Shown here piece by piece: positions 1 through 16,499 of a stretch of 17,065 nt of DNA. Source of the DNA: a virus (taxonomy: Duplodnaviria; Heunggongvirae; Uroviricota; Caudoviricetes); the IMG/VR virus record IMGVR_UViG_2582580934_000003, positions 1 through 17,065 of that record. The stretch is one strand, 5' to 3'. The notes under the pieces are model-generated. The model saw only the letters and a list, made by a program, of their open reading frames with translations. It was not told the DNA's origin and did not search any database. Made by a program: the position numbers and the translations under genes. How positions within the stretch are numbered: the stretch's first letter is position 1; the number at the start of each line of letters is the position of its first letter.

Positions 1-62
1 AAGTCCTCACTATATAAAGATATTCAGTGATGAGATAAATAATCAGTTTATTAATAACGATA

Positions 63-425: not shown

Positions 426-473
426 TTTGCTGCTCCTCATCATATCGACCCTGCAAGGTCGGTTGGTTTCTCC

Positions 474-561: not shown

Positions 562-607
562 AAAAAGAGCGGTACCAGCCGGAAGCAAGTGTACAAACTG
601 GTACCGC
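561..607 (-). terminator. Intrinsic terminator on the minus strand (10-bp stem GCGGUACCAG / CUGGUACCGC, then CUCUUUUUAC); candidate DicF-like sRNA 3' end
   Basis: Perfect inverted repeat 569-578 / 598-607 followed on the minus strand by a U-run (plus 561-566 aaaaa). The upstream UUUGGCGGUACCAGUUU resembles the DicF sRNA as recalled from memory; not verified. Confidence 0.5.
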
Positions 608-1052
608 CAAAGCAGTGGCTGTTGTGGTGACCGGTGCTGATCTCCGGCATGCGGTTATTTCAGACTCTCACGGGCATTTAATTGCCCCGCCGAACAGCTC
701 TTTTCTGCAATAGCTGCAATGTCTTTCGCGCATCAGCCTGCGCATTCACCACAACGCTGAGAGCACTTAGCCAGTTACGGCACCACACTTTGTCGCGGTT
801 CCATAAATGCCCTCATCGTTGCACCCTGGTCTCTTCCCAGGCGTCAAACCGAATCGCCACGCTGGTTAGGCGTCTTATCAGCATCATCATTGACTTGCAC
901 ATTCCGGCTACCTGGTTTGTTTGCCCGAGCAAGGAGTGGATTGTCCCCTTTAACGTCCCCAGACCGCTAACGACGCATGTGCCATACGCCGTGTTACAAC
1001 CAAATTTTGTTAGTACCTTGTTTGTTTGTCTGGAAAGAAAGATAAAATGAAA

Positions 1053-1091
1053 TTGCGCATTATGCAAGTGTTTTTATTGCGAGATATGCAA
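1053..1091. promoter_or_regulatory. Two operator-like 15-mers TTGC-N7-GCAA (1053-1067, 1077-1091), candidate OL
   Basis: ttgcgcattatgcaa and ttgcgagatatgcaa spaced 24 bp apart; the same TTGCG/CGCAA half-sites recur in the cI-cro intergenic region. Confidence 0.4.
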
Positions 1092-1100
1092 TTTAATGAG

Positions 1101-1126
1101 TAATGAAAAGCCACCTTCGGGTGGCT
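1101..1126 (-). terminator. Terminator hairpin downstream of cI (AGCCACC-UUCG-GGUGGCU)
   Basis: Perfect 7-bp stem with UUCG loop at 1109-1126, about 20 nt beyond the cI stop, followed on the minus strand by UUUCAUU. Confidence 0.55.
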
Positions 1127-1146
1127 AATTGATGAGGAGGTAAGGG

Positions 1147-1839
1147 TTAATTGTGTCGCTTAAGGGTTTGTGACTGGCTGATTAAGACCTTTCCAAAGAC
1201 CATAAACCGGTGTTCATTTTCGCTGGTAATTCCCCATTCACGGTAAATCTGGTTATCAGAAATCACCAGTAGTTTGTCAGGTATCATTTGCAGTCGTTTG
1301 ACATAAATTTTATCATCAAAACCAAATACATAGATACCATCTCCATCAAACTGATTGATACTGACATCAACGAAGATGAGATCTCCTGGCTCAATGGTTG
1401 GACACATACTGTCCCCACGAACGTTGATAACTTTAATGTGATTGGCTGGCCGTCCGCCAAACATCGATACAGCATTATCAGTTCTGTATTCAATGGCATG
1501 AATCACATCAATGACATCACCGCCCTGGATAAGGCCATTTCCCGCACTGGCACTGACATCCAGCATTTCAATACGGAATACATCCTTCACCTGCGCAACA
1601 TCCTCACTAATACTGTTTTTACATACAGTATTACTTTTGAAGTCTGAGGTAAAGAGATCAGCAATATCAACACCTAAGCTCCTGGCAATATTACTCAGGG
1701 CTTGTTCAGTGAATTGTTTCTGCTTACCTGTTTCCAGGCGTGAGATATTCGCCGCATCCACTCCTATTGCTTCAGCGAGATCGGCGATTTTCATGTTCTT
1801 CGCCTGGCGAAGTTGTCTGACTCGGTTTCCTATGTTCAT
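1147..1839 (-). CDS. cI: Lambda cI-type repressor (N-terminal HTH, C-terminal S24 LexA-like autopeptidase domain)
   Basis: 230 aa with HTH region (IADLAEAIGVDAANISRLETGK) and a C-terminal GDSM ... KR Ser/Lys dyad pattern typical of S24 peptidases. Divergent from a cro-like gene. No SD before the ATG, suggesting a leaderless or weak-SD start as with lambda pRM. Confidence 0.9.
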   Translation of the reverse strand: MNIGNRVRQLRQAKNMKIADLAEAIGVDAANISRLETGKQKQFTEQALSNIARSLGVDIADLFTSDFKSNTVCKNSISEDVAQVKDVFRIEMLDVSASAGNGLIQGGDVIDVIHAIEYRTDNAVSMFGGRPANHIKVINVRGDSMCPTIEPGDLIFVDVSINQFDGDGIYVFGFDDKIYVKRLQMIPDKLLVISDNQIYREWGITSENEHRFMVFGKVLISQSQTLKRHN

Positions 1840-1859
1840 GCGTTTATTACATTTCTTTA

Positions 1860-1922
1860 TTGCGCGTTAAGCAAATCAACTTGCGCAAAATATTTGCGTG
1901 AAATAATATGCTCATCACGCAA
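1860..1922. promoter_or_regulatory. oR-like operator/promoter region between cI and cro (TTGCG half-site repeats; candidate pR -35 TTGCGC 1881-1886 / -10 TAATAT 1904-1909)
   Basis: ttgcgcgttaagcaa (1860-1874), ttgcgcaaaa (1881-), and inverted pair ttgcgtga / tcacgcaa (1895-1902 / 1915-1922). GGAGG RBS at 1928-1932 before cro ATG at 1937. Confidence 0.5.
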
Positions 1923-1936
1923 TATGTGGAGGTTAT

Positions 1937-2197
1937 ATGCAATCACCATTACGGAATGTGCGTAAGGCGCACGGATTTACTTTGCAGCATGTTGCTGCTG
2001 GCGTTCAGGTCAATCCAGCGACGCTGAGTCGTATTGAAAGACTGGAACAAATTCCATCTATCGATCTTGCAGAACGTCTGGCCAATTTTTTTAAGGGTGA
2101 AATCAGCGAAATGCAGATTCTTTATCCGGCACGTTTTCAATCTAGCCAAAACCAGAATGGGTTTAAACCACAGGAACAGGAGGTAAGCCGTGGGTAA
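1937..2197 (+). CDS. Cro-like HTH (XRE-family) regulator
   Basis: 86 aa, HTH motif (FTLQHVAAGVQVNPATLSRIE), GGAGG RBS, divergent from cI. Confidence 0.8.
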   Translation: MQSPLRNVRKAHGFTLQHVAAGVQVNPATLSRIERLEQIPSIDLAERLANFFKGEISEMQILYPARFQSSQNQNGFKPQEQEVSRG

Positions 2198-2741
2198 TCA
2201 TCACTGGAAAGTGGAAAAACAGCCTGAGTGGTACGTGAAAGCTGTCAGAAAAACTATCGCGGCGTTGCCGGGGGGGTACGCTGAAGCTGCTGAGTGGCTG
2301 GATGTAACAGAGAACGCTTTATTCAACCGCCTTCGTGCAGATGGCGATCAGATTTTCCCGCTGGGATGGGCAATGATTTTACAGCGTGCTGCTGGCACTC
2401 ACTACATTGCGGATGCTGTCGCACAGTCTGCTGGTGGGGTGTTTGTATCACTTCCAGAAATTGAGGAAGTAGAGAACGCTGATATCAACCAACGTCTACT
2501 GGAAGTTATTGAACAGATCGGGAGTTACTCAAAGCAGATTCGTTCGGCAATCGAAGACGGGGTAGTGGAGCCACATGAGCAGACAGCAATTAATGATGAG
2601 TTGTATCTGTCGATTTCGAAGCTCCAGGAACATGCGGCACTGGTCTACAAAATTTTCTGCGTTCCAGAAAAGAGTGACGCCCGCGAGTGTGCAGCTCCGG
2701 GCGTCGTGGCGTTTTGTGTCTGTGGAGAAACTAACGCATGA
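2190..2741 (+). CDS. CII-like early regulatory protein (candidate phage CII/CP76 or YdaT-like family)
   Basis: 183 aa, GTG start with AGGAGG 6 nt upstream, overlaps the cro stop by 8 nt. Position after cro matches cII. Family assignment is from memory, not from a search. Confidence 0.65.
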
Positions 2742-3076
2742 ACAGTTTAACAACACACTACCGTCGTTCGCAACTGATTGCGCTTCCTGTACCGGGTGGA
2801 AAAGCGAAGGTGGAGTATTGCTATGCAGTGAATGTACCAGGTGATAGGGAAATTGTAACCCACAGCTTTGCAGAGTGGGCTGTGGGTGATTTCAACCGGC
2901 AGAAGGAGACAGTCCTTTGCGACAAGTTAACCGCTGGTTCAAAGATCACTACGGAGTGCCCGTCAGAGTCATTCGTTGGGAGCCGGAAACACAACGGGTT
3001 ATCTACCTCCGTGAAGGCTATGAACATGAATGCTTCAGTCCGCTCGAACAGTTTCGTCGTAAATTCAGGGAAATAG
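2738..3076 (+). CDS. Hypothetical ORF, start coupled to the cII-like stop (ATGA); C-terminal half is low-complexity and may be out of frame
   Basis: ATG at 2738 overlaps TGA of the upstream gene. The first ~60 aa look protein-like; the remainder is S/T/N-rich and overlaps ORF 2917..3129 in another frame. Confidence 0.3.
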
Positions 3077-3129
3077 AGGTCGGTCATGAGCCTGTTAATG
3101 ACATCCCAGCCCATTGTGATAAATCGTGA
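2917..3129 (+). CDS. Small phage protein (70 aa), TTG start
   Basis: Strong SD GAAGGAGA at 2902-2909, 7 nt before TTG at 2917. Sequence is globular-looking ([24 protein letters not shown]...). Overlaps the replication gene start by 44 nt. Confidence 0.45.
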
Positions 3130-4078
3130 TCTTGCATGCCGTATTGGTCTGAATGAGGCAATTGTGTTGCAGCAGCTTCATTACTGGCTGAATGAAACGA
3201 ATTCAGGCACTGAGCATGGCGGAATTCGCTGGGTTTATAACACGACAGAACAGTGGCTGGAGCAGTTTCCGTTCTGGTCAGAGTCCACTCTGAAACGCAC
3301 ATTTGCAAGCCTGAAATCACTTGGGGTTTTGCGTCGCGAGCAACTCAATAAATCGAAGCGTGACATGACCAACTTCTACACGATCAACTATGAAAGTGAG
3401 CTTTTAGAAGAGGTCAAAGTGAACGAATCCATCAGGTCAAAATGCACTTCTCCATCGGGTCAAAGTGACCTGATGGATGAGCGCAAAATGACACGATCCA
3501 TTGGTTCAAAACGACACGCTGTCATCGGGTCAAAATGGCCCAATGATCTTACAGAGAATACAACAGAGATTACTACAGAGAATAAAACCTCTTCTCGTCC
3601 GGACGCTTCGCAACCGGACACGCAGATGGCTGAACAGGATTTTTTAACTCGCCATCCTGATGCGGTTGTATTCAGCCCTAAAAAGCGCCAGTGGGGAACG
3701 CAGGATGATTTGACCTGCGCACAGTGGCTCTGGAAAAAAATCATCGCTCTGTACGAGCAGGCCGCCGAATGTGACGGCGAAGTGGTACGTCCTAAAGAAC
3801 CGAACTGGACAGCCTGGGCAAACGAAATTCGCCTGATGTGTGTACAGGATGGGCGTACTCACAAACAAATCTGCGAGATGTACAGCCGCGTCAGCCGCGA
3901 TCCGTTCTGGTGCCGTAACGTGCTCAGCCCGTCGAAGCTGCGGGAAAAATGGGATGAGCTTTCCCTGCGCTTATCGCCGTCCGTCAGCACGTACACAGAA
4001 AAACGCGAAGATCCGTACTTCAAAGCCAGTTACGACAACGTGGACTACAGCCAGATCCCGGCAGGATTCAGGGGGTGA
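3086..4078 (+). CDS. Phage replication initiation protein (lambda O-like replisome organiser) with internal origin
   Basis: 330 aa; N-terminal region typical of phage replication initiators, and the central coding region carries iterons as in lambda O/ori. Confidence 0.8.
   Translation: MSLLMTSQPIVINRDLACRIGLNEAIVLQQLHYWLNETNSGTEHGGIRWVYNTTEQWLEQFPFWSESTLKRTFASLKSLGVLRREQLNKSKRDMTNFYTINYESELLEEVKVNESIRSKCTSPSGQSDLMDERKMTRSIGSKRHAVIGSKWPNDLTENTTEITTENKTSSRPDASQPDTQMAEQDFLTRHPDAVVFSPKKRQWGTQDDLTCAQWLWKKIIALYEQAAECDGEVVRPKEPNWTAWANEIRLMCVQDGRTHKQICEMYSRVSRDPFWCRNVLSPSKLREKWDELSLRLSPSVSTYTEKREDPYFKASYDNVDYSQIPAGFRG
3431..3583. repeat. Candidate replication origin: five ~14-bp iterons at ~23-bp spacing (3431, 3454, 3477, 3500, 3524) followed by an A-rich region with three ACAGAGA(A/T)T repeats (3551-3583)
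   Basis: atcaggtcaaaatg, atcgggtcaaagtg, atgagcgcaaaatg (degenerate), attggttcaaaacg, atcgggtcaaaatg, then acagagaat / acagagat / acagagaat at 12-bp period. Confidence 0.7.
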
Positions 4079-4080
4079 TC

Positions 4081-4173
4081 ATGAGTCTTTTGAATGAAGT
4101 TCAGAAATTCATTGAAGCCCATCCGGGGTGTACTTCCGGAGACATTGCGGATGCTTTTTACGTGGGGGCTTAA
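4081..4173 (+). CDS. Small ORF (30 aa, MSLLNEVQKFIEAHPGCTSGDIADAFYVGA), coupled to both neighbours; possibly a gene remnant
   Basis: ATG 2 nt after the replication gene stop; its TAA overlaps the methyltransferase ATG (TAATG). Below the ORF-track size cutoff. Confidence 0.3.
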   Translation: MSLLNEVQKFIEAHPGCTSGDIADAFYVGA

Positions 4174-4826
4174 TGAGTAATAAATATTGTCAGGCGCTGG
4201 TGGAGCTGCGGAACAAACCATCCCATGAACTGAAGGAGGTGGGCGATCAGTGGCGCACGCCGGACAGCATTTTCTGGGGAATTAACACCTTGTTTGGCCC
4301 GTTTGTTCTGGATCTGTTCACTGACGGTGATAACGCCAAATGTGCCGCGTATTACACGGCGGAAGACAACGCGCTGGCGCATGACTGGTCAGAACGCCTT
4401 GCGGAGCTTAAAGGTGCTGCCTTTGGCAATCCCCCATACAGTCGCGCCAGTCAGCATGAGGGGCAATACATCACCGGCATGCGTTACATCATGAAACATG
4501 CCAGTGCCATGCGTGATAAGGGCGGGCGCTATGTTTTCCTGATCAAAGCTGCCACCAGCGAAGTGTGGTGGCCGGAAGATGCGGACCATATTGCTTTTAT
4601 TCGCGGGCGTATTGGTTTTGAACTGCCTGCCTGGTTTATCCCGAAAGATGAGAAGCAGGTGCCGACAGGCGCTTTCTTCGCTGGTGCTATTGCTGTTTTT
4701 GACAAGACCTGGAAGGGACCGGCAATCAGCTACATCGGGCGCGATGAACTTGAGGCATGTGGTGAGGCCTTTCTGGCGCAGGTTCGCCAGCAGGCAGAAA
4801 AACTGGTCAGGGAGATGGTGGCATGA
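4173..4826 (+). CDS. Phage Dam-type DNA N6-adenine methyltransferase
   Basis: NPPY motif (AAFGNPPYS); size and position in the nin-like region are typical of lambdoid prophage Dam. Start taken at ATG 4173 (MSNKYCQ) rather than the track start 4128. Confidence 0.8.
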   Translation: MSNKYCQALVELRNKPSHELKEVGDQWRTPDSIFWGINTLFGPFVLDLFTDGDNAKCAAYYTAEDNALAHDWSERLAELKGAAFGNPPYSRASQHEGQYITGMRYIMKHASAMRDKGGRYVFLIKAATSEVWWPEDADHIAFIRGRIGFELPAWFIPKDEKQVPTGAFFAGAIAVFDKTWKGPAISYIGRDELEACGEAFLAQVRQQAEKLVREMVA

Positions 4827-5212
4827 AGCTGATCCTGCCTTTTCCGCCCAGCGTGAACACGTACTGGCGACACCCCAACAAAGGGGCGTTTGCTGGTAAG
4901 AGCCTGATAAGCGCGGCGGGGCGCAAATTCCAGAGCGCGGCGTGTGCAGCAATAGTTGAGCAGTTACGTCGTCTGCCAAAACCAACGTCGGCACCTGCTT
5001 CAGTGGAGATTGTGTTGTTTCCTCCGGATAACCGGATCCGCGATCTGGACAACTATAACAAGGCGCTGTTTGACGCCCTGACCCACGCGGGTGTGTGGGA
5101 AGACGACAGTCAGGTGAAAAGAATGCTGGTGGAGTGGGGACCGGTTATCCCGGAAGGGAAGGTCGAGATCACTATCAGTAAGTACGAGAAAACGGCGGGT
5201 GCAGCCGCCTGA
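4823..5212 (+). CDS. rusA: RusA Holliday junction resolvase
   Basis: 129 aa with the conserved DLDN...K...DALT..AG.W.DD pattern of RusA; ATGA overlap with the methyltransferase stop. Confidence 0.85.
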   Translation: MKLILPFPPSVNTYWRHPNKGAFAGKSLISAAGRKFQSAACAAIVEQLRRLPKPTSAPASVEIVLFPPDNRIRDLDNYNKALFDALTHAGVWEDDSQVKRMLVEWGPVIPEGKVEITISKYEKTAGAAA

Positions 5213-5231
5213 TCAAGAGGAGAAACGAAGT

Positions 5232-6041
5232 ATGAATAATCTGATGGTCATTGATGGTATTGAAGTTCGTCGTGATGCTTATGGGCGTTACAGCCTGAAC
5301 GATCTGCATCGCGCAGCAGTAGCATCTGGTGCAAATGCCAGAACCAAGGAGCCAGGAAAGTTTCTTTCCAGCCAACAAACTGTTGAACTTGTTCATGAAT
5401 TGACCAACACCCAGAATTTGGGTGTTGACCCGGTGAGTGTGATTCATGGGGGAAATGAACGGGGAACGTATGTCTGCAAAGAACTGGTGTATGCCTATGC
5501 AATGTGGATCAGCCCGTCATTCCATCTGAAGGTGATCCGTACTTTCGACATGGTAACCAGCGCACCGGAAAAATTATCCGGACAGGCTGCTGACAAGATG
5601 CAGGCTGGTGTGATTCTGCTGGACTTTATGCGCCGGGAATTAAACCTGTCTAACTCTTCAGTGCTTGGTGCCTGCCAGAAACTCCAGGAGGCTGTTGGCT
5701 TACCGAATCTGGCACCGCGCTATGCCATTGATGCTCCTGCTGATGCACACGATGGCTCAAGTCGCCCCACGCTGTCGCTGAGTGCACTGCTGAGGCAGTA
5801 TGGTATCCGCCTGACGGCTAATCAGGCATATCACCAGATGGTGACGCTGGGGATCGTTGAACAACGCGAACGATACAGCCGTACCGCGATTAACAACATC
5901 AAAAAATTCTGGTCGCTGACGGCGAAAGGCTGCATGTTCGGCAAGAACATCACCAGTCCTGCAAATCCGCGCGAGACGCAGCCGCATTTCTTCGAATCCC
6001 GATTCCCTGAGCTGTTAAAGCTGCTCGATACCGTTCATTGA
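5232..6041 (+). CDS. KilA-N domain protein (Roi/antirepressor-like)
   Basis: N-terminal KilA-N-like region (MNNLMVIDGIEVRRDAYGRYSLNDLHRA...). Start at ATG 5232 with RBS AAGAGGAGA. Confidence 0.75.
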   Translation: MNNLMVIDGIEVRRDAYGRYSLNDLHRAAVASGANARTKEPGKFLSSQQTVELVHELTNTQNLGVDPVSVIHGGNERGTYVCKELVYAYAMWISPSFHLKVIRTFDMVTSAPEKLSGQAADKMQAGVILLDFMRRELNLSNSSVLGACQKLQEAVGLPNLAPRYAIDAPADAHDGSSRPTLSLSALLRQYGIRLTANQAYHQMVTLGIVEQRERYSRTAINNIKKFWSLTAKGCMFGKNITSPANPRETQPHFFESRFPELLKLLDTVH

Positions 6042-6042
6042 G

Positions 6043-7038
6043 GTGACCGTGAGAGCACTACTGACCCCTGAAATTGCCCCGCGTATGGGGATTGTATTGT
6101 TCAGGCCAGGTTCAGAGCTGATGCCCCTGTTTATGCAGGGGCGTGTCCTGCTGGAGCCTGAGCCGGAACGTTATTCATCTTTCGCCAGTGGTGCCGTTCC
6201 GGCGGCATCACAACCGCTGGCGGATGATCCTGCCGTTCGGGCCGTGTTCCGCAATGAGGCAGTGATCCGTCGTGCTGGTGGCGTGGAATGTCTTGAAAGC
6301 TGGTTACTTCGTGAAAAGGGCTGTCAGTGGCCTCATTCCGACTGGCACAGCGAGAACATGACCACAATGCGGCACGCTCCGGGAGCAATTCGTCTGTGCT
6401 GGCACTGCGATAACCAGCTGCGTGACCAGTTCACGGAACGGCTGGAATCAATGGCAACGGATAACTGTGCCCGCTGGGTGTTGTCTGTCGTGCGTCGGGA
6501 TCTCGGTTTTGATGACAGTCACGTTGTGACAATGCCGGAACTGTGCTGGTGGCTGGTTCGTAATGATTTGGCGGATGCCTTACCGGAAAGTGCAGCCCGT
6601 AAGGCACTGAGATTACCGAAGCCTGTTGTGCCATCTGTCACCCGGGAAAGTGACCTTGTGCCTTCGGTTCCTGCCACCAGCATCATCCAGGATAAAGCGA
6701 AAAAGGTGCTGGCGCTGAAAGTGGATCCGGAGTCGCCGGAGTCTTTTATGTTACGCCCCAAACGTCGCCGCTGGGTTAATGAAAAGTACACGCGCTGGGT
6801 TAAGACGCAGCCGTGCGCATGTTGTGGAAAGCCAGCTGATGATTCCCACCACCTGATAGGCCACGGTCAGGGTGGAATGGGTACAAAAGCGCATGATCTC
6901 TTTGTGTTGCCTTTGTGCAGAAAGCATCACGACGAGCTGCATGCGGATACCGTGACATTTGAAGAGAAGTATGGCTCCCAACTGGAGCTGATATTTCGTT
7001 TTATCGATCGTGCGCTGGCAATTGGCGTACTGGCGTAA
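6043..7038 (+). CDS. DUF968 (YdfU-like) protein with C-terminal HNH-type Cys/His motif
   Basis: 331 aa; C-terminus CACCGKPADDSHHLIGHG...LPLCRKHHDELH. Start is ambiguous between GTG 6043 and GTG 6049. Confidence 0.75.
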   Translation: MTVRALLTPEIAPRMGIVLFRPGSELMPLFMQGRVLLEPEPERYSSFASGAVPAASQPLADDPAVRAVFRNEAVIRRAGGVECLESWLLREKGCQWPHSDWHSENMTTMRHAPGAIRLCWHCDNQLRDQFTERLESMATDNCARWVLSVVRRDLGFDDSHVVTMPELCWWLVRNDLADALPESAARKALRLPKPVVPSVTRESDLVPSVPATSIIQDKAKKVLALKVDPESPESFMLRPKRRRWVNEKYTRWVKTQPCACCGKPADDSHHLIGHGQGGMGTKAHDLFVLPLCRKHHDELHADTVTFEEKYGSQLELIFRFIDRALAIGVLA

Positions 7039-7051
7039 GTGGAGAACGAGC

Positions 7052-7804
7052 ATGAACCTTGAAGCCTTACCAAAATATTACTCCCCAAAATCTCCAAAAT
7101 TGAGTGATGCCGCACCGGCGACAGGCTCAGGTGGTTTAACGATTACGGATGTGATGGCTGCGCAGGGGATGGTGCAGTCGAAAGCACCGCTTGGGTTTGC
7201 CTTATTCCTGGCAAAAGCTGGCGTTCAGGATCCTCAGTTTGCGATTGAAGGTCTGCTCAATTACGCGATGGCACTGGATAACCCGACATTGAACAAATTG
7301 AGTGAAGAAATCCGGTTACAGATCATCCCTTACCTTGTGAGTTTTGCCTTTGCTGATTATTCCAGGTCTGCGGCAAGTAAGGCTCGCTGTGAGCCTTGTG
7401 CTGGTACTGGATTTCATAATGTATTGCGCGAAGTGGTGAAATACTCCAGAAGCGGGGAGTCTGTTATCAAGGAAGAGTGGGTGAAGGAACTATGTCAGCA
7501 TTGTCATGGTAAGGGAGAAGTCAGCACAGCGTGCAGAGGGTGTAAGGGTAAAGGTATTGTCCTGGATGAAAAAAGGACCCGGCTTCATGGCGCGCCTGTT
7601 TATAAGATTTGTGGGCGTTGCAATGGAAACCGGTTTAGTCGTTTACCAACGACACTGGCGCGGTGTCATGTCCAGAAGCTGGTACCAGACCTGACTGATT
7701 ATCAGTGGTACAAAGGATATGCAGATGTCATTGATAAACTGGTTACAAAGTGCTGGCAGGAAGAAGCATATGCTGAGGTGCAATTAAGAAAAGTGACGAG
7801 ATAA
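7052..7804 (+). CDS. quuQ: Late-gene antiterminator Q (Q82/QuuQ-type, multiple CxxC zinc motifs)
   Basis: Start at ATG 7052 (RBS GGAGAA); several CxxC pairs; immediately upstream of a strong promoter and terminator (pR'/tR' arrangement). Confidence 0.85.
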   Translation: MNLEALPKYYSPKSPKLSDAAPATGSGGLTITDVMAAQGMVQSKAPLGFALFLAKAGVQDPQFAIEGLLNYAMALDNPTLNKLSEEIRLQIIPYLVSFAFADYSRSAASKARCEPCAGTGFHNVLREVVKYSRSGESVIKEEWVKELCQHCHGKGEVSTACRGCKGKGIVLDEKRTRLHGAPVYKICGRCNGNRFSRLPTTLARCHVQKLVPDLTDYQWYKGYADVIDKLVTKCWQEEAYAEVQLRKVTR

Positions 7805-7835
7805 ATGATTTTCGCCGAAGATGGCGACGTAATGC

Positions 7836-7864
7836 TTGCATTTTTCAAAAAATATGGATAAAAT
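7836..7864 (+). promoter_or_regulatory. Candidate late promoter pR' (-35 TTGCAT 7836-7841, 17-bp spacer, -10 TAAAAT 7859-7864)
   Basis: Near-consensus sigma70 hexamers read directly; position just downstream of Q and ~50 nt upstream of an intrinsic terminator. Confidence 0.6.
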
Positions 7865-7913
7865 TTTTTCAACGATGGGCTTTATATACCCGACGTTAAG
7901 AAAAAGTAGAAAA

Positions 7914-7935
7914 CCCGCTGATGAGCGGGTTTTTG
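7914..7935 (+). terminator. Intrinsic terminator tR' (CCCGCT-GATG-AGCGGG + UUUUU)
   Basis: Perfect 6-bp GC-rich stem with a T5 run at 7930-7934. Confidence 0.7.
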
Positions 7936-8219
7936 TGCTTTAGATAGGGTAATAGAGATGTTGAATCTCATTCCGGGATTCATGTTTATTTACTTATTAT
8001 TTATCGGGTGACTTTGCCTGATGTTTAAAATGTTTTCTTCCAGTACTATGTCCCTAGATACAATGAGTCTGCATATTACATTATTAGCAGAGCTATTACG
8101 GTCAAAGTACAGCATAAGCTTTTAAAGCCAATCAACCAGTCATCAAGACAGACGGGGTTATTCATGAAAACTCTCCATGTTTGATTCGATGGGGCCTGAA
8201 ATTAAAGCTTTAATATAGC

Positions 8220-8432
8220 TCATGAAAGGTAAACATTGGCAGCTGAAGGGCCACGCAGACCATTTATCCGGCAAAATTCCACGCGTAATCCGGTGGTAAT
8301 TTCTTCTGCATCGCGGAGATTGAGCGCTGAAACATGAAGCTGGACATCGATACGACCATCGGATGGGGTGATAAGACCCTTGCCGCTTTTGCCGTCAAAG
8401 GTTTTGACAATTCCTGTCATTTTACGGGACAA
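8220..8432 (-). CDS. cspF: Cold-shock protein, CspF/CspH-like
   Basis: 70 aa [13 protein letters not shown]...[10 protein letters not shown]; cold-shock domain; divergent from cspB as in Qin. Confidence 0.85.
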
Positions 8433-8732
8433 AAAAATTCCTTAATACTGATAACTGGGCGCACTATACACACGTTCCTGAAGAAAGCTATAGTTTTTTG
8501 ATGGGGTTGAAGATGGCTGGATGTCTAAAATAAACATTGCTTCATATGTTCAACTATGCGTTAATGATTGCGTCGGTTTGAAGAACAGACGATATACGAA
8601 GTAGTTTACTAAAGCAGTTCTCATTTCAGGTGTTATTCACTTATTCCTTCTTTGAGTCTCTCCAATTAAGTACGAAGTCGTTTCTGTTATACAAGCCATT
8701 TATGCCGAAAGGCTCAAGTTAAGGAATGTAGA

Positions 8733-8948
8733 ATGTCAAATAAAATGACTGGTTTAGTAAAATGGTTTAACGCTGATAAAGGTTTTGGCTTTATTTCTCC
8801 TGTTGATGGTAGTAAAGATGTGTTTGTGCATTTTTCTGCGATTCAGAATGATAATTTTCGAACCTTGTTTGAAGGTCAAAAGGTTACCTTCTCTGTAGAG
8901 AGTGGTGCTAAAGGTCCTGCAGCAGCAAATGTCATAATTACTGATTAA
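8733..8948 (+). CDS. cspB: Cold-shock protein CspB
   Basis: 71 aa [71 protein letters not shown]; long AT-rich 5' UTR. Confidence 0.9.
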
Positions 8949-9230
8949 AATTCATAGTTTGTCTGTATACGATAACGAAGAAGGCTGATGCCTGAGTGGA
9001 GATACAGACAGAGTGGTGAATATTGGATCTCTTTAATAAATAGTAAGGAGGTCCAATACATGAAACAATGGCCAGCATATTTGGCAATAACTTAATCAGG
9101 AAAAGTATGCTAACCATTGTGGTGAAGTGCAGGTTTGCTGCATGAATAGTTTTACAGCAGAAGCTAACTGCTGGCATAGCAAAACAAAGTGCGTAAGTGG
9201 ATGACTCCCACAAAAAGTACCACAATATTA

Positions 9231-9252
9231 AACCCGCTCAGGCGGGTTTTTT
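9231..9252 (+). terminator. Intrinsic terminator (ACCCGC-UCAG-GCGGGU + U6)
   Basis: Stem 9233-9237 / 9242-9246 followed by tttttt at 9247-9252. Confidence 0.6.
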
Positions 9253-9311
9253 ATTATCTGCTTTAAATATGTTATTAAAATATAAAAAATACTTGTTACG
9301 AATAAAATCAA

Positions 9312-9482
9312 TCAAGCTACAGCTTTAAGATTTGTCTGGAATACTTTGTTGCAATGAGGGCAGATCAAAAGGGCACCTTTTTGTACTCTTGAAAAACTGT
9401 GTTCTGACTCTTGGGTGCAGTTTGGGCAGGAACATTTAACGAGATAATTACGGCGTGATTTTGAGTCTTTACGTTCTGACAT
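9312..9482 (-). CDS. Small zinc-ribbon protein (56 aa, CxxC-N17-CxxC), possibly a YdfK/YnaE-like prophage protein
   Basis: MSERKDSKSRRNYLVKCSCPNC...LICPHCNK. Start taken at the internal ATG (9482), which has an AGGA RBS, instead of the track start 9533. Family name is uncertain. Confidence 0.5.
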   Translation of the reverse strand: MSERKDSKSRRNYLVKCSCPNCTQESEHSFSRVQKGALLICPHCNKVFQTNLKAVA

Positions 9483-9700
9483 AGGCTTTTCCTGTATAAA
9501 TGGCCGTATACAGTACACTAAATATGAAAACATATCTCGTATTATTATTTAATATATGATTTTCTTTTAAAATAATTACCCACATTTTTAATGTGTCTGT
9601 TTTTTAGCGCCGTTGAGAACAACGTTTGCTATAAAAACTAACCCATAGACTCCGATCTTTTCAAACATATTGCACCATCTGTGTACATCGGGGTGAGGAT

Positions 9701-9916
9701 ATGAAATCAATGGATAAGTTAACAACAGGTATCGCCTATGGCACATCGGCTGGTAATGCTGGTTTCTGGGCATTGCAGTTACTCGATAAAGTAACTCCGT
9801 CACAGTGGGCTGCAATCGGTGTGCTGGGTAGTCTGGTTTTTGGCCTGCTGACGTATCTGACAAACCTTTATTTCAAGATTAAAGAAGACAGGCGTAAGGT
9901 TGCGAGAAGAGAGTAA
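9701..9916 (+). CDS. Pinholin (phage 21 S-type class II holin, dual-start motif M1-K-S-M4)
   Basis: 71 aa, two TMDs, [18 protein letters not shown]...; paired downstream with a SAR endolysin. Confidence 0.85.
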
Positions 9917-9920
9917 TCCA

Positions 9921-10472
9921 ATGACACAAGACTATGAACTGGTTGTGAAAGGAGTCCGCAATTTTGAGAATAAAGTGGCGGTAACTGTAGCCTTACGGGA
10001 CAAAAAACGCTTTGACGGTGAAATTTTTGACCTGGACATCTCGCTGGACCGTGTTGAAGGTGCCGCGCTGGAGTTTTATGAGGCAGCAGCCAGAATGAGA
10101 ATCAGACAGGTATTCCTGGATGTTGCTGCCGGGTTATGTGTAGGGGATGAGCAGTCGCCGGAAAAGCGCCCCATAATTTTAGAGGCGCAGAATGTGTGGA
10201 TAACCTACAAAGGAAAGCTACCGGGAAGAATTACTGGTTCTCTGAAGACGCCACCGACGGCATTGCGGTCAGAAAAAGATGATATTGAATCGCCCATTGA
10301 AAAACTGGAGGGCAGCGTCGCTGATCTGAATAAAAAATTGTCGGTGCTGATCCCTTCTGAAGATGAAAAAAAACGCCGCGATGAGCAGTTTGCGGCGTTT
10401 TACGATTATTGCATTGAAGTTACTCGCAGGAATTTTGTGAAGATTTTTGAGGAGGGTAAATCTCTTCAGTAA
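9921..10472 (+). CDS. Hypothetical protein (183 aa) inserted between holin and endolysin; possibly YdfR-like
   Basis: ATG at 9921, 4 nt after the holin stop; protein-like K/E-rich composition. Same strand as the lysis genes. The YdfR suggestion rests on position only. Confidence 0.55.
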   Translation: MTQDYELVVKGVRNFENKVAVTVALRDKKRFDGEIFDLDISLDRVEGAALEFYEAAARMRIRQVFLDVAAGLCVGDEQSPEKRPIILEAQNVWITYKGKLPGRITGSLKTPPTALRSEKDDIESPIEKLEGSVADLNKKLSVLIPSEDEKKRRDEQFAAFYDYCIEVTRRNFVKIFEEGKSLQ

Positions 10473-10680
10473 GCTTAATGGCGGACGCTGCAATTAATTC
10501 AGGAAGGTCCGCAAGGTCATCTGTCAGTGGATATGATGAAAAATCGGCGGCAGTTCTGTTAAGAAGCGCTTTAACTAATTCCTTTTCCTTCTCCGGCAAC
10601 AAGTTGATTAGAGCTACGACTGCTTGCCTGAGTGCGATTAAATCAGCAAAAGTTTGTTTTGGTAGATTTGTGTAATCCAT
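10420..10680 (-). CDS. Hypothetical protein (86 aa), convergent with and overlapping the 3' end of the 183-aa gene by 53 bp
   Basis: ATG at 10680 with SD AGAGGTG 5 nt upstream; helical-looking sequence MDYTNLPKQTFADLIALRQ... Confidence 0.4.
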   Translation of the reverse strand: MDYTNLPKQTFADLIALRQAVVALINLLPEKEKELVKALLNRTAADFSSYPLTDDLADLPELIAASAIKLTEEIYPPQKSSQNSCE

Positions 10681-10793
10681 AGTCACCTCTGTGTTTATCA
10701 GATTGACATCCTCCTCCCGCCAGTGCCCATCACTGGTGAGGTAAGATTTAACATATCCGGGGATTTGAAGCCGATAAATCCTGATAAATATCC

Positions 10794-11821
<1,028 letters not shown>

Positions 11822-12181
11822 ATTAATATTAAATCGGATTATTTTTAGCGCTGAATGTGAAATTTAAATAAAAAGGACTCTTCCATGAGTCAAAATCCTT
11901 GAAATCTTAAGGGTAAGATAAAAGGTCATTAGACAGAATGACACGTTTTATTAATAAATAAAGCTATTGTTTCATTCGTGTGTTTTTCTTTACAAAAGTA
12001 ATCCTTGCTATGGTTGGTTAATCATGCGTTAATGGTGTTCTGGTTTGTTACAAAATTATCTGAAGCAGTCATTGTTATAATTTTATTATTTGTACCTCTT
12101 GAGATTTCCTTGTTGGTTTTTCTCTCTGATATTTTTTTTCGGACCATTCTGCCCAAGGGCTAACTTCTTCAAAAGGTAATA

Positions 12182-12397
12182 ATGATGTTTAACAAAATGA
12201 CTGGTTTAGTGAAATGGTTTAACCCTGAAAAAGGTTTTGGTTTCATCACGCCGAAAGATGGTAGCAAAGATGTGTTTGTGCATTTCTCAGCTATTCAGAG
12301 CAACGATTTCAAAACGTTAACTGAGAATCAGGAAGTCGAATTTGGTATTGAGAACGGACCTAAAGGCCCTGCAGCTGTTCATGTAGTGGCACTTTGA
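12182..12397 (+). CDS. cspI: Cold-shock protein CspI
   Basis: 71 aa ...[67 protein letters not shown]; long AT-rich 5' UTR. Confidence 0.9.
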
Positions 12398-12607
12398 GGT
12401 AGAAAATATTACAAACCATATTCACTTTAGATGCCCGTGTTGCCATGGTTCTCAGTATAGAACATCATCTTTTGATGTTTCTGACAGAAATCCTTTCGGG
12501 GCAAAATGTATCTTTTGTAAATCAATGATGATTACATTTGATAATATTTCACAATACTTAAATGTTAGCCATCTGTCGTTAGATTTAAGAAAGTGAAAAT
12601 GAAGGCT

Positions 12608-12661
12608 CCTTCGGGCGCGTTTTTTGTAAAGCTAACAAATTGTTTCTATTAGCTTATTTCT
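12608..12661. repeat. Direct repeat copy 1 (54 bp, identical to 13278-13331); lacks the left arm of the terminator stem
   Basis: ccttcgggcgcgttttttgtaaagctaacaaattgtttctattagcttatttct, read directly in both places. Confidence 0.85.
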
Positions 12662-12852
12662 GCCCTTGAGCTGCCGTTTTTTTATTCTGTTAGTTGTGAA
12701 ACTGAAGCGATTTAGTCACTATCGATCTCATCAAATATGGCTCGCTTTGAGATATTCCTCAAGTAAAAAAACACCTCTTCCTGCGATTTCTCACAAAAAA
12801 GATTCGTTGACAAAAAGTGACAAAATTATGAGATTCCCATCACACATTTTGA

Positions 12853-13248
<396 letters not shown>

Positions 13249-13273
13249 TCCTTTATATTGAGTGTATCGCCAA

Positions 13274-13295
13274 CGCGCCTTCGGGCGCGTTTTTT
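13274..13295 (+). terminator. raiA intrinsic terminator (CGCGCC-UUCG-GGCGCG + U6)
   Basis: Perfect 6-bp GC stem with UUCG loop and T6; its right arm and T-run form the start of direct repeat copy 2. Confidence 0.75.
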
Positions 13296-13331
13296 GTAAA
13301 GCTAACAAATTGTTTCTATTAGCTTATTTCT
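13278..13331. repeat. Direct repeat copy 2 (54 bp, identical to 12608-12661)
   Basis: Exact 54/54 identity with copy 1; flanking bases differ (12607 t vs 13277 g; 12662 g vs 13332 t). Confidence 0.85.
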
Positions 13332-13399
13332 TATAAACATCCACAAACTGTCCACATCAGTAATGATATACAAGCCCGCAAAAAAATGCGGGCTTTGTC

Positions 13400-14206
13400 T
13401 TATGGAGCCGAAATGGTTGTGGTAATAGTCCCCCGAAGCCGTTGCGCTGCTACCTCAAAATAATGATCACTGGTTTCTATACCAATAAATTTTCGCCCTG
13501 CTTTCAGTGCAGCCACACCCGTTGTCCCTGACCCCATAAAAGGATCAAGGACTGTTCCGCCACTATTCACAGTCCTGACCAGTTCCGCCATTAGTTCTTC
13601 TGGTTTTCCGGTCGGGTGCATTTTCTTTGACGGGATAACCGGGAACGTCATGCAGCCGTCGAACGGACCCGAAGGCGATTTACCTAAATGGCCTTTACTG
13701 CCCCAGACGATGTATTCGCACTGATGCCGGAAATACCCGGTATGGGGTGTTCGTGACCCCCTCCCTTTGTTCCACGCAATAATTCCACGCCATGTAAAAC
13801 CGCTGGCCTGAAACGCATCGGTTAAAGCAGGCAGTTGCCGCCAGTCAGTAAATACCAGGGCATAACCGCCCGGCCTGACTGCGCGGTGTGCCTGTGCCAT
13901 CCATAATTGTGTCCAGTAAGCCCACGAACGGGCATCCATGTTTTCACCCGCAAATTCATCAAAGCGGTGAAGGCTCTCGCCGTTCAGATATTTTGCGTGG
14001 CTGCCCTGGTTGGTGCGTCCGGCCTTGTGTGTCGCGCCCGAACTGTAAGGCGGGTCAGTGATTAAGGCATCAATACTTTCTGGCTCAATCAGCGGCAATA
14101 TTTCCAGCGCATTCCCACGACAGAGCGTGGCATTGTCAGTCTGATAAACCTTAGTGTGTTCCGGTGTATGTGCTGGTTGGTGCTGGATTGCGATCCCCAC
14201 GGTCAT
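13400..14206 (-). CDS. DNA methyltransferase, beta-class amino-MTase (N6-adenine or N4-cytosine)
   Basis: 268 aa; motif IV DPPY (LITDPPYSSG) precedes motif I (VLDPFMGSGTTGVAA), the beta-class order. The start may be GTG at the third codon, which has better SD spacing. Confidence 0.85.
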   Translation of the reverse strand: MTVGIAIQHQPAHTPEHTKVYQTDNATLCRGNALEILPLIEPESIDALITDPPYSSGATHKAGRTNQGSHAKYLNGESLHRFDEFAGENMDARSWAYWTQLWMAQAHRAVRPGGYALVFTDWRQLPALTDAFQASGFTWRGIIAWNKGRGSRTPHTGYFRHQCEYIVWGSKGHLGKSPSGPFDGCMTFPVIPSKKMHPTGKPEELMAELVRTVNSGGTVLDPFMGSGTTGVAALKAGRKFIGIETSDHYFEVAAQRLRGTITTTISAP

Positions 14207-14348
14207 AACTCCTCATGTGTGTGGGGTGCTCGATGGCTCTCGTTATCTGGTTAAGTGTTTTGCAGCGCGGACATTTTATTTCAATGTAGTGAAATGAGGC
14301 GCGGGCAAGTAGTTTGTTGCAATTTTTGCATCGTACATTTTGCGTCAT
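14151..14348 (-). CDS. com: Com-like zinc-finger translational regulator (phage Mu Com family)
   Basis: MTQNVRCKNCNKLLARASFHYIEIKCPRCK: CxxC-N16-CxxC close to Mu Com. ATG at 14348 with SD AAGAGGTG. The 3' end overlaps the methyltransferase start by ~55 nt. Confidence 0.7.
   Translation of the reverse strand: MTQNVRCKNCNKLLARASFHYIEIKCPRCKTLNQITRAIEHPTHMRSYDRGDRNPAPTSTYTGTH
14195..14226 (-). promoter_or_regulatory. Stem-loop sequestering the methyltransferase SD and start codon (mom-like translation initiation region)
   Basis: On the mRNA, CCCCAC (plus 14221-14226) pairs with GUGGGG (plus 14195-14200), enclosing GAGGAG and the AUG at 14204-14206. Confidence 0.45.
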
Positions 14349-14385
14349 TTGCGGCACCTCTTGTGTGGTTACTGCTGCCGATATG

Positions 14386-14436
14386 ATAACAAATCGATCG
14401 TTTTTATCGATCGGATTTATTGCATCGATCTGTTAT
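14386..14436. promoter_or_regulatory. Symmetric operator-like element upstream of com: three ATCGATC repeats (each with a GATC) inside a 13-bp imperfect inverted repeat
   Basis: ATCGATC at 14393-14399, 14406-14412, 14424-14430; arms ataacaaatcgat (14386-14398) and atcgatctgttat (14424-14436) match 12/13 as reverse complements. Confidence 0.5.
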
Positions 14437-14486
14437 GCCTATTGCTTATGTATGGTGCCCTCATTTGTGAGGGTAGCAAAAAGAAA

Positions 14487-14518
14487 ACCCGCAGTTTTTA
14501 CGCTGCGGGTTTGTTGTT
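14487..14518. terminator. Bidirectional intrinsic terminator (ACCCGCAG / CUGCGGGU, T-runs on both sides)
   Basis: 8-bp stem 14487-14494 / 14503-14510, TTTGTTGTT downstream on plus and TTTCTTTTTG downstream on minus. Confidence 0.5.
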
Positions 14519-14566
14519 CATGTCTGTGAGATAGGGTGCCGTTTCGACCAACCTTAGCAACCGATT

Positions 14567-14899
14567 GACGGGGGATTACCCCCCCCGTCGCGGTTATCTT
14601 ACTTATTACATAGTAAGAATGCCGCAATTTCCGTGCCAGCAAACCTGAATCGTAACTCGCACGGTGATGTGTGGAGGATCCAGATTATCGCTACCGCAGT
14701 TATGCAAAGTAACAGGGTTTTTAACGGAATTTGCGTCATAACGCTTGTCTCCTGAGAGGAGAGGCGCTAACCTTCTACTTGCGAAGGTAAGAAGTGTTAG
14801 GGCCTCGGTTAAACAGAAATGTTTTCCGGGGCCTTTCCACATCTGGCCTTCGGGTATTCCCTCCGACCATCAGCCGAAAGGCACCCGCGCGTAATCTAT
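14567..14899. other. Highly structured non-coding region between ogr and the com promoter (candidate sRNA and/or prophage attachment-site remnant)
   Basis: Hairpins at 14567-14589 (GACGGGGG / CCCCCGTC), 14597-14618 (TCTTACT / AGTAAGA), 14749-14761 and 14801-14833 (13 bp with a GAAA loop), then a T6 run at 14893-14898. No credible ORF. Confidence 0.4.
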
Positions 14900-14930
14900 C
14901 GCTTTTTTGTTACTCCGGCAATTCTGCCTG

Positions 14931-15191
14931 TTAATTCTGAGATAAAGGCAAACTCATCTGATTGTTTCCCCTGTGTGAAGCTGGCAGATCATGCCACGGG
15001 ATACCTTCTGAAGAGTGAACGCCGGAGGCGTGTTTTGATGTGAATTTATGGAAAGCTTCCAGTGTTGAGAAGCATACGCCGCATTCCAGGTTGTTACACT
15101 GGTAATACTTTTGCCGCACGGTGTTTGAATCATTTTCCGGACGACTGGTGCGGATACGGGCAGATGCGCCACAAAGCGGACAACGGAACAT
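14931..15191 (-). CDS. ogr: Ogr/Delta-family zinc-finger late transcription activator (P2 Ogr-like)
   Basis: MFRCPLCGASARIRTSR...YYQCNNLECGVCF: the CxxC...CxxC signature of Ogr. Strong SD GGGAGG. Directly downstream of a gene D homologue, as in P2. Confidence 0.85.
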   Translation of the reverse strand: MFRCPLCGASARIRTSRPENDSNTVRQKYYQCNNLECGVCFSTLEAFHKFTSKHASGVHSSEGIPWHDLPASHRGNNQMSLPLSQN

Positions 15192-15233: not shown

Positions 15234-16343
15234 TCACTCTGTTTCCGCTATCCATTCCGGGATTTTTGCCTCAAGCTCAAGCTGCGTGGTAAAGCCGCTG
15301 TTATCAATGGTGTGCTCGGCTTTCGCAATAATCCAGTCCTGATTATCAATCTCGCTTTTAAATCCTGTTACCGTGCCATGCATTTCGGGGTAGAGTTCTG
15401 CGCGTCCGCGTGCCAGTGTGATGGAGAATGATGCGGCTCCGCGTTGTAGTTGTTGCCACTTTGCCGCCGCTGCGCGTCTTGCTGCCTGCTCGTTCTGATA
15501 AGTCTTGCGTAACACAAACACATTGCCTTCCGCGCCTTCCATATAATCACCTTCACGGCTGCTGCTTTTCTCTTTTTTCGGTTTTGGCGGTTTGCGGCGT
15601 TTCACGCTGACTTTTTTCTTTTTCCCGTAATTAAGATCAAGCCAGTAAGCGCGTACCCCCGTATACGCCTCGCGGTCAGCAATGCGGAACTGATGGCGAT
15701 CGCCGCTGCTGCGTGTGATGGCGAACGATGGCAACGGCTGGCCCTGTGCGTTCACGCCACCGCCGGGCATGATGAATAACAGATTACCGCTTTTTACCGT
15801 GGTGATTGCGCCCAGCATTTCCGCCATGCGCGTAAGGAAGGACATGTCGCTTTCTTCGGTCTGGTCGGCGTGGTCGATTTCAATATCCATCAGCATTTCG
15901 CTGATTTGCGGTTTCAGGCCGTATCGGTGAGCAATTGCAGACACCACGCGTTCAACGGTCACATCATGCCAGGATACTTCGCGCTTGACGTTAAATTCAT
16001 CCCGAAAATCTGCGCTTCTGGCTGAAATGGTCAGTCTGTCGGGCGGTCCTTCATGAGCAATTTCATCAACAATGTAAGTGCCTTTTTCTGTCAGCGGTTC
16101 TCCTTTCCAGCCAATGAGAACCGTCAGGCGCGCGCCCCGTGGCGGTAGCTGCAACTGACCATCCGCATCATCCAGCGTGATGGTGAGCTGGTCCGCTTCA
16201 AATCCCCGGTTGTCGGTCAGTGACAGGCTCATCAGGCGCTCTGCCACGCCGGACAGCGTTTCCCCCTCCGCGAGAATATCAAAATCCGGCATTTTCACGG
16301 GGTCTGTGCCCTGACTGAGCAATTGTATGGTGGTGTCGGTCAT
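15234..16343 (-). CDS. P2 gpD-like tail protein (phage late control gene D family)
   Basis: 369 aa from ATG 16343 (SD AGGGAGGG); size and position immediately upstream of ogr match P2 D. Has an unusual Lys-rich linker (KKKKVSVKRRKPPKPKKEK). Confidence 0.7.
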   Translation of the reverse strand: MTDTTIQLLSQGTDPVKMPDFDILAEGETLSGVAERLMSLSLTDNRGFEADQLTITLDDADGQLQLPPRGARLTVLIGWKGEPLTEKGTYIVDEIAHEGPPDRLTISARSADFRDEFNVKREVSWHDVTVERVVSAIAHRYGLKPQISEMLMDIEIDHADQTEESDMSFLTRMAEMLGAITTVKSGNLLFIMPGGGVNAQGQPLPSFAITRSSGDRHQFRIADREAYTGVRAYWLDLNYGKKKKVSVKRRKPPKPKKEKSSSREGDYMEGAEGNVFVLRKTYQNEQAARRAAAAKWQQLQRGAASFSITLARGRAELYPEMHGTVTGFKSEIDNQDWIIAKAEHTIDNSGFTTQLELEAKIPEWIAETE

Positions 16344-16499
16344 CTTTCCCTCCCTGTGCAGCATGGTCGCATGTGCGTGCGGAGGGGGTTACTGCTTTTT
16401 GTTGTCGCCGTGGCGGGAGAACGGCGCGGGGGTGAGATTACGCGCGTGGTGGGTGATGATTGTTGCCGAATCATTTAACGGATACAAGGGGCTGAAGCT

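Follow-up and report, generated by a model that had tools for sequence, protein, structure and literature searches.

A hok/sok-type toxin-antitoxin cassette, very probably intact, behind ogr of a P2-like prophage

Described hok/sok systems and the gap behind ogr

The hok/sok locus of plasmid R1 (parB), a plasmid stability locus, is the paradigm of type I toxin-antitoxin (TA) systems. Toxicity, neutralisation by Sok, 3′ processing and RNase III cleavage are known for R1 (PMC9841398) and for hokW-sokW of the Stx2 prophage Sp5/933W (PMC8621323), and in R1 translation of an overlapping frame, mok, is needed to open the hok start (PMC9841398). The prophage-borne hokW-sokW has been shown experimentally to be a type I TA; it is activated upon prophage induction, helps lysis and raises phage release about two-fold, and the discussion of the same paper records that R1 hok/sok reduces T4 plating (PMC8621323). 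A 2026 preprint (Escalera-Maurer et al., bioRxiv 10.1101/2025.08.07.668861) reports a four-fold enrichment of hok in prophages and toxicity for 42 of the 45 homologs tested; mok, Sok and mRNA structure were deliberately placed outside its analysis. A further parallel, by functional analogy alone, is tisB/istR-1 with its ribosome standby control, in which the antisense RNA pairs far upstream of a closed toxin start; its sequences are unrelated to the locus described here.

The present analysis concerns a 17,065-nt stretch of phage DNA (hereafter the window; IMG/VR record IMGVR_UViG_2582580934_000003). Between ogr and a com-like gene it has 573 bp with no ORF of at least 100 codons, most of which a preliminary description had called an ORF-free, hairpin-dense region and a candidate small RNA or att remnant. 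The region is not ORF-free, for a 46-codon Hok ORF lies at 14599–14739 on the minus strand. We are highly confident that about 14478–14921 constitutes an intact hok/sok-type type I TA cassette, which a P2-like (Peduoviridae) prophage carries as accessory cargo, with ogr on one side and a com-DNA-methyltransferase operon on the other. The flanking genes are:

13400–14206: N6/N4 DNA methyltransferase gene, after the com-like gene
14151–14357, minus strand: com-like zinc-ribbon gene (Pfam Zn_ribbon_Com)
14931–15191, minus strand: ogr (Pfam Ogr_Delta, 52.4 bits)
15234–16364: gpD, upstream of ogr

A hok/sok locus after ogr is a well-known element that has been annotated before, and nothing about it is new in kind. 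The enrichment of hok/sok in prophages is likewise known, and the window sequence itself is annotated in hundreds of genomes. Indeed, the DNA of the 573-bp gap has matches in 1254 of 5426 complete E. coli genomes, with 24 records at 99% identity or more, and RefSeq names the 46-aa gene “Hok/Gef family protein” (WP_032140709.1). What the analysis establishes is the family membership of the peptide, the conserved architecture of the mRNA, the conserved antisense promoter and hairpin, and the genomic context. Its use lies in correcting an apparently ORF-free gap: toxin genes of 46 codons and antisense RNAs escape gene callers and readers, and public records give the CDS alone for such loci, at times under the misleading name “MokW-like”. 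Thus, the homologous gene is labelled “MokW-like host killing” in the records of phages P88 and Chuche; this is a PHROG name, and carries no evidence of identity with the HokW locus. A literature search combining hok with P2-like prophages found no paper.

Several comparisons place the peptide in the Hok family. Pfam HOK_GEF (PF01848) matches residues 9–44 with 33.8 bits against a cut-off of 22, and phrog_251 (“MokW-like host killing”) matches with an E-value of 2.8e-13. R1 Hok (52 residues against 46) is 35% identical over the core and has the same Hok/Gef pattern, C-x-T ... C-E ... E-(V/I)-A-A-F. Of the conserved Hok residues (M1, C16, T18, L30, C31, E32 and E41 in the logo numbering of bioRxiv 10.1101/2025.08.07.668861), the window peptide has M1, C12, T14, C27, E28 and E37, while a Pro (SPCE) replaces the Leu that precedes Cys-Glu in over 80% of Hok peptides. 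The cut-offs of the NCBIfam HokA equivalog (NF007290; 27.7 bits against 89) and of the R1-type Hok subfamily (NF007279; 25.2 bits against 73) are not reached, and the peptide is therefore a Hok-family member of another cluster, outside the named K-12 and R1 types. Its relatives in the preprint are the 46-aa clusters 72, 79 and 82, which form the same clade (MSQK...AAFLQCKQ type), with peptide 82_1289 sharing the SPCE motif; the available part of the supplementary text holds no match to the exact window peptide or to WP_032140709. HokW, in contrast, has 51 aa, falls in another sequence cluster and comes from a lambdoid phage.

The hok mRNA, its antisense RNA and their conservation

The elements of the cassette, whose coordinates were all verified by string search, are as follows:

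14893–14921, minus strand: predicted hok promoter (−35 TTGCCG 14916–14921, 17-nt spacer, −10 TAGATT 14893–14898)
14534–14886, minus strand: body of the hok mRNA, from the predicted 5′ end GGGUGCC (14886) to the end of fbi (14534)
14865–14886, minus strand: tac, the 5′ end pairing with fbi (MFE folds, 49 homologs)
14801–14833, minus strand: leader hairpin with a ucb-like GGCCCC and a GAGG at 14803–14806 (Rfam alignment, R1 comparison, helices 5 and 6)
14739–14769, minus strand: hairpin sequestering the hok Shine-Dalgarno (AGGAG, 14749–14753) and start codon (AUG 14739) (MFE, helix 8)
14599–14739, minus strand: hok toxin CDS, 46 aa, MTQIPLKTLLLCITAVAIIWILHTSPCELRFRFAGTEIAAFLLCNK (Pfam, PHROG, R1 alignment, RefSeq, codon differences)
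14597–14619, minus strand: hairpin spanning the hok stop codon (anatomy)
14599–14601, minus strand: hok stop codon (string search)
14567–14589, minus strand: G+C-rich 3′ hairpin, GACGGGGGGGG-UAAU-CCCCCGUC (fold, helix 16)
14534–14552, minus strand: fbi, the 3′ partner of tac, GGUUGGUCGAAACGGCACCC (MFE folds, 49 homologs)
14478–14512, both strands: bidirectional intrinsic terminator (stem 14485–14512, U-run to about 14478 on the minus strand)
14745–14773, plus strand: predicted Sok promoter (−35 TTGTCT 14745–14750, 17-nt spacer, −10 TAACCT 14768–14773)
about 14781–14836, plus strand: predicted Sok-like antitoxin RNA of about 57 nt (single-stranded 5′ tail of about 19 nt, hairpin 14800–14834, UUU)

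Compared with R1, the locus follows the same plan. Thousands of plasmid records that carry the annotation Hok family toxin match the R1 reference at 100% identity (locus L256), and the numbering of this reference agrees with the map of PMC9841398 (mok Shine-Dalgarno 104–107, mok AUG 116–118, hok AUG 174–176). Both loci have an mRNA of 350–400 nt closed by tac/fbi, and in the MFE folds of both, computed in silico, the 5′ end pairs with the 3′ end. In both, a GAGG is sequestered by an upstream GGCCCC box (the ucb/mok-SD pairing of R1), which in the closed form of the window mRNA joins GGCCCC (+53 to +58) to GAGGCC (+81 to +86); this GAGG corresponds to the R1 mok Shine-Dalgarno, and the leader hairpin is the predicted Sok target region. 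Both have a G+C hairpin some 33–38 nt before the 3′ end, and the one at 14567–14589 would, by analogy with R1, correspond to the terminal stem that protects the truncated hok mRNA (PMC9841398). Both have an antisense RNA of about 60 nt, with its −35 over the complement of the hok Shine-Dalgarno and its terminator hairpin opposite the leader. The R1 Sok promoter, TTGCGC-17-TATCCT, has the layout of TTGTCT-17-TAACCT in the window, and the sokW oligonucleotide YO-597 (PMC8621323) contains TTGCCT-17-TAACC, a sequence of the same type. The differences are as follows: in the window the hok AUG lies at +148 rather than +174, which makes the leader shorter by 26 nt; where R1 has its mok AUG, the window has no start codon; and the one locus is prophage cargo, the other a plasmid stability locus.

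The predicted hok promoter begins 10 nt past the ogr stop codon with no terminator between, and its spacer contains an A6/T6 run (14903–14908). From a start near 14886, the predicted mRNA would measure about 355–410 nt; the primary transcript may extend to the terminator at 14485–14512, which parts hok from the com-methyltransferase operon. These ends are predictions, and 3′ processing and RNase III action would be expected here as in the relatives.

That the region is dense in hairpins, as described before, holds up well. For the 409-nt stretch 14478–14886 the folding z-score is −7.2 for the minus strand and −8.5 for the plus strand, and 100 shuffles gave no fold as stable; the region has five terminator-like sites where 0.7 were expected. 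Most of its hairpins belong to the minus-strand hok mRNA. A permissive Rfam scan (801-nt search) aligned the sok/hok-leader model RF01794 with 14886–14728 on the minus strand over its full length (model positions 1–157; 47.4 bits, E 2e-9). The match stays below the gathering score of 59, and a default scan of the window is therefore silent on it: at gathering thresholds the sole matches were two cspA elements elsewhere, and none to sok.

The architecture is conserved well beyond the window. A first alignment joined the window to 13 BLAST-derived homologs from P2-like phages, Stx/lambdoid phages, IncI1 plasmids and chromosomal sites by serS and ykgM. Among these 14 loci from differing contexts, homology starts at the hok −10/5′ end and stops just past GGCACCC (fbi), and these shared limits are therefore taken as the boundaries of a mobile cassette. 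A degenerate 30-nt pattern, scanned against viral contigs, added 119 loci; a 15-mer, AGGTTAGCGCCTCYC, scanned against 596 Gb of genome contigs, was too short a pattern and returned random matches in unrelated phyla alone. The structure was tested in an alignment of 49 non-redundant sequences, 64–83% identical to the window. There, 81.6% of cells are paired against 35–44% with partners slid, and both sides changed in 86 cells against 20–29, with the qualification that the tested structure was derived from the window sequence and is thereby favoured over the slid controls. Its covariation score was reached by none of 500 shuffles. Pairing reaches 92% in helix 1 and 89% in helix 2, the two that join tac to fbi, where one compensatory pair occurs (CG to UA, in 6 sequences). 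It reaches 99.7% in helix 8, which holds the hok Shine-Dalgarno and start, and 100% in helix 16, the G+C hairpin, which has 4 compensatory pairs.

The antisense side is conserved likewise. The −35 of the predicted Sok promoter overlaps the complement of the hok Shine-Dalgarno, and the complement of its −10, AGGTTAGCGCCTC, is invariant in all 14 sequences of the BLAST-derived set. All 38 distinct versions of the predicted Sok RNA fold as tail, long hairpin and UUU, with compensatory changes in the upper stem. In the window, the hairpin at 14801–14833 is the predicted terminator of this RNA, with the leader hairpin as its complement; the terminator tail is short, UUU alone. The ends of the Sok-like RNA, as well as its expression, are predictions. 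The same hairpin had been noted earlier as a perfect 13-bp stem with a GAAA tetraloop. The 13 pairs and the loop are there, but the stem is not perfect, having one G·U pair and a small internal loop.

Translation and repression of hok without a conserved mok frame

One element of the R1 system has no clear equivalent here. The window has a candidate frame:

14606–14842, minus strand: mok-like overlapping ORF, 78 codons, ATG at 14842 (doubtful)

This frame has no Pfam or PHROG match. A frame reading into the hok start region from ATG, GTG or TTG, the starts to which the count applies, is absent in 29 of the 49 homologs, and its start position varies among the rest; in some homologs the ATG of the window frame is followed at once by a stop codon, and in others indels shift the frame. 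Two other candidates were rejected. A mok start at the R1-equivalent site, 8 nt past GAGG, would read CUU in the window and AUC, AUA or AUU in homologs, with frames closed by stops in most; and a mini-ORF that would stop at the conserved UAG of GGUUAGCGCC lacks conservation and is missing from the window. Mok in the window is thus unproven, and the overlapping frame, unlike that of R1, is not conserved in the clade. Since R1 needs its mok frame, the translation-activation step of R1 is not simply transferable, and translation activation is the weakest link in the hok/sok reading.

With this reservation, the cassette might work as follows. The minus strand would be transcribed from TTGCCG-17-TAGATT, with a start near 14886, into a stable, highly folded mRNA. 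In the full-length form tac would pair with fbi, and the hok Shine-Dalgarno and start codon would lie inside the local hairpin; we propose that the 46-aa membrane toxin is for this reason not made. If the analogy with R1 holds, slow 3′ trimming to the G+C hairpin at 14567–14589 would then remove fbi, whereupon the leader would refold and expose the target region. The short, unstable Sok-like RNA (about 14781–14836) would pair with the exposed region, and the mRNA would be destroyed or silenced. Should the supply of Sok stop, through loss of the element, shut-off of transcription or possibly prophage induction, Hok would be translated and the inner membrane damaged. The exact window peptide is probably toxic, by its kinship with toxic relatives. 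The phage might benefit through stabilisation of the lysogen, exclusion of other phages, or help in lysis as in hokW-sokW; in particular, a role upon induction like that of hokW-sokW is plausible by analogy.

What curiosity remains is limited to two points, the mok-less regulation of the 46-aa clade and the placement directly behind ogr. It may be of interest by what route a clade without a conserved mok frame translates and represses hok, and whether the cassette, from its site directly behind ogr, links toxin release to late transcription of P2. A tentative scheme, possible but on balance doubtful, would cover both. The 46-residue Hok clade of P2-like and Stx phages would have dispensed with mok yet kept every part of the R1-type RNA switch: tac/fbi, the ucb box, and the GAGG, formerly the mok Shine-Dalgarno. 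With no leader ORF to block, Sok would act either via RNase III decay alone or by occluding a ribosome standby site about 50 nt upstream of the hairpin-locked hok start, as in tisB/istR-1; standby loading is here a speculation, borrowed from that system. Furthermore, because the hok promoter follows the ogr stop so closely and with no terminator between, late read-through from ogr could collide with Sok transcription, which would tie Hok release to the lytic cycle.

The same loss of mok could be read in another way. E. coli K-12 is said to have several chromosomal hok loci that are silent relics, and the cassette may be hok/sok by descent but a relic as well, in which Hok is never translated, mok coupling having been lost, or the peptide is non-toxic. 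The missing mok frame speaks for this, as does the hok Shine-Dalgarno, which remains in its hairpin even in the fold of the 3′-truncated RNA; so do the change from Leu to Pro next to the Cys-Glu motif and the existence of clearly degenerate homologs, one with a frameshift (L008) and one with a replaced 5′ end (L226). We nonetheless consider a relic unlikely. The window retains intact promoters, tac/fbi, Shine-Dalgarno, ORF and both hairpins, and the cassette is retained as a unit across many mobile elements. Against its nearest divergent relative, the hok ORF has 10 synonymous and 4 non-synonymous codon differences, with third positions varying most, a pattern that shows purifying selection on the ORF. 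As for the peptide, the SPCE relative 82_1289 and three further clade members (72_1589, 72_1621 and 79_1563) are in the tested set of 45, and the three non-toxic homologs have other ids; the same preprint found that single alanine changes at conserved positions do not abolish the toxicity of R1 Hok (bioRxiv 10.1101/2025.08.07.668861).

The plus strand and the end of the prophage

The preliminary description had suggested a possible undescribed plus-strand sRNA here, about 100 nt long, convergent with ogr and ending near 14899 at a T-run. Such an RNA would be free-standing, acting in trans like CyaR next to ogrK, or else a structured RNA unrelated to any ORF. Part of this is retained: a plus-strand RNA that is convergent with ogr and uses the 14801–14833 hairpin is the best reading of that hairpin. 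The strand has the hairpin and promoter-like hexamers, it folds as well as the minus strand does, and Sok-type RNAs could in principle have extra targets in trans. It is the free-standing character that we regard as very improbable, given that the predicted RNA is fully complementary to the hok leader; we read it as a cis-antisense antitoxin of the Sok type. The hok/sok architecture accounts for every conserved element, and no Rfam sRNA family (such as CyaR) is matched beyond chance, sok being the sole exception. Nor does the proposed 3′ end agree with the sequence. The T6 run had been placed at 14893–14898, where the plus strand reads AATCTA; it stands 10 nt off, at 14903–14908. As a plus-strand terminator it was rejected, there being no preceding stem; on the minus strand it is an A6 tract within the hok promoter spacer. 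The RNA predicted here has about 57 nt and ends near 14836.

The remaining reading, in which the P2-like prophage would have its att site or an att remnant here, is favoured by the gene order of P2 itself, where att directly follows ogr. We reject this reading, giving it almost no credence, for the end of the prophage can be located elsewhere. Comparison of occupied and empty sites shows that the homology of the window to the empty K-12 site covers 12662–13297. Its end coincides with the raiA terminator, where the annotated raiA-derived sRNA RaiZ has its 3′ end. The prophage thus ends at 13297/13298, at the raiA/RaiZ terminator, 1.1–1.6 kb away from 14450–14930, and hok/sok and the com-methylase genes are therefore internal cargo. 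The general premise of the earlier proposal, integration at the 3′ end of a small RNA gene, is borne out at this junction. A tRNA/tmRNA scan of the window found none, and a tRNA-type att target is therefore lacking in it.

The gene order in related elements argues the same way against a displaced att site. Free phage Chuche has, in this order, D, ogr, hok, com and methyltransferase, with the integrase next. In E. coli 8479 the block from D to the methyltransferase adjoins flk, and in OkiPb01715 it adjoins raiA, as in the window, so that in all three the block is kept and att/int or host DNA follows it. The DNA held in common by flk- and raiA-site prophages runs from ogr through hok and com to the methylase gene and its terminator; past the methylase gene, the window has the terminator alone (from 13372) in common with the flk-site prophage and with Chuche, and past the terminator the window and the locus L001 diverge. 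In the P2-like phages P88, Chuche, P884B11, 500465-2 and Shae_phiSM, cassette DNA 80–83% identical to that of the window occupies the same site directly after ogr/D, and the flanking cargo is com-methyltransferase in Chuche, as in the window, and other genes in P88 and Shae_phiSM.

Mobility and decay of the hok cassette

Among the homologous hok loci compared with the window (L-numbers), the limits of the cassette, namely the hok -10 box and fbi (the pairing 3' end of the hok mRNA), are the same in unrelated neighbourhoods. The cassette is flanked by tail-fibre and lom genes in Stx/lambdoid phages (L006, L007 and L015), lies in IncI1 plasmids in L011 and L012, and is accompanied by an ogr-D fragment in the large plasmids L013 and L014. 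The recurrence of one bounded cassette in such different surroundings therefore indicates that the whole cassette moves as a unit.

Three further loci depart from the single intact gene. L009 (CP061270.1) carries two tandem hok genes beside serS (531-671 and 1005-1145), the hok of the small plasmid L008 (CP054244.1) is frameshifted to give a 72-aa product, and in L226, a viral contig, the tac end (the pairing 5' end of the mRNA) is replaced. Duplicated, decayed and intact copies therefore exist side by side.

A mok-like frame and predicted transcription around hok

In plasmid R1, hok translation is coupled through the overlapping frame mok. A similar frame is present in the window:

14606-14842, minus strand: mok-like overlapping frame, not conserved

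An ATG/GTG/TTG frame entering the hok start is absent from 29 of the 49 non-redundant homologs. The R1-style GAGG/GGCCCC leader switch is retained all the same.

On the ogr side, only 10 nt separate the ogr stop from the start of the hok -35 box, with no terminator between the two (14893-14933). Read-through from ogr would reach the hok leader, where it would meet Sok transcription head-on.

Beyond hok lies the cargo operon:

13400-14206: methyltransferase
14151-14357: com
14383-14436: region upstream of the operon

This upstream region holds a promoter-like site, TCGATA-16-TATCAT with a TG, embedded in palindromes. ATCGATC occurs three times there, placing GATC at 14396, 14409 and 14427, inside 35 bp. 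The arrangement is reminiscent of the phage Mu mom promoter, which is under the control of Dam and OxyR; here, however, the operon encodes an N6/N4 methyltransferase instead of Mom. A further imperfect hairpin, GCCCTCA-TTTG-TGAGGGT (14446-14485), separates the hok terminator from the com promoter.

Two prophages at raiA

In the region 13249-13400, the raiA intrinsic terminator marks the exact end of the P2-like prophage, with the junction at 13297/13298; position 13297 is the last one homologous to the empty K-12 site. The K-12 counterpart of this site is the 3' end of RaiZ, an annotated sRNA. Past the junction, about 75 nt without shared sequence lead to the methylase terminator (13372-13395).

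A lambdoid prophage contributes the segment that fills the left three quarters of the window:

1-12661: genes for a CI-like repressor, CII, Dam, KilA-N, DUF968, Q antiterminator and lysozyme, and an Rz-like gene
8572-9011 and 12027-12443: 5' thermoregulator RNAs (Rfam cspA) of two cold-shock genes of the cspA type, within the segment

Near 12661 this segment gives way to the sequence upstream of raiA that is homologous to K-12. As bamD does not neighbour raiA in the window, a different prophage stands on each side of raiA.
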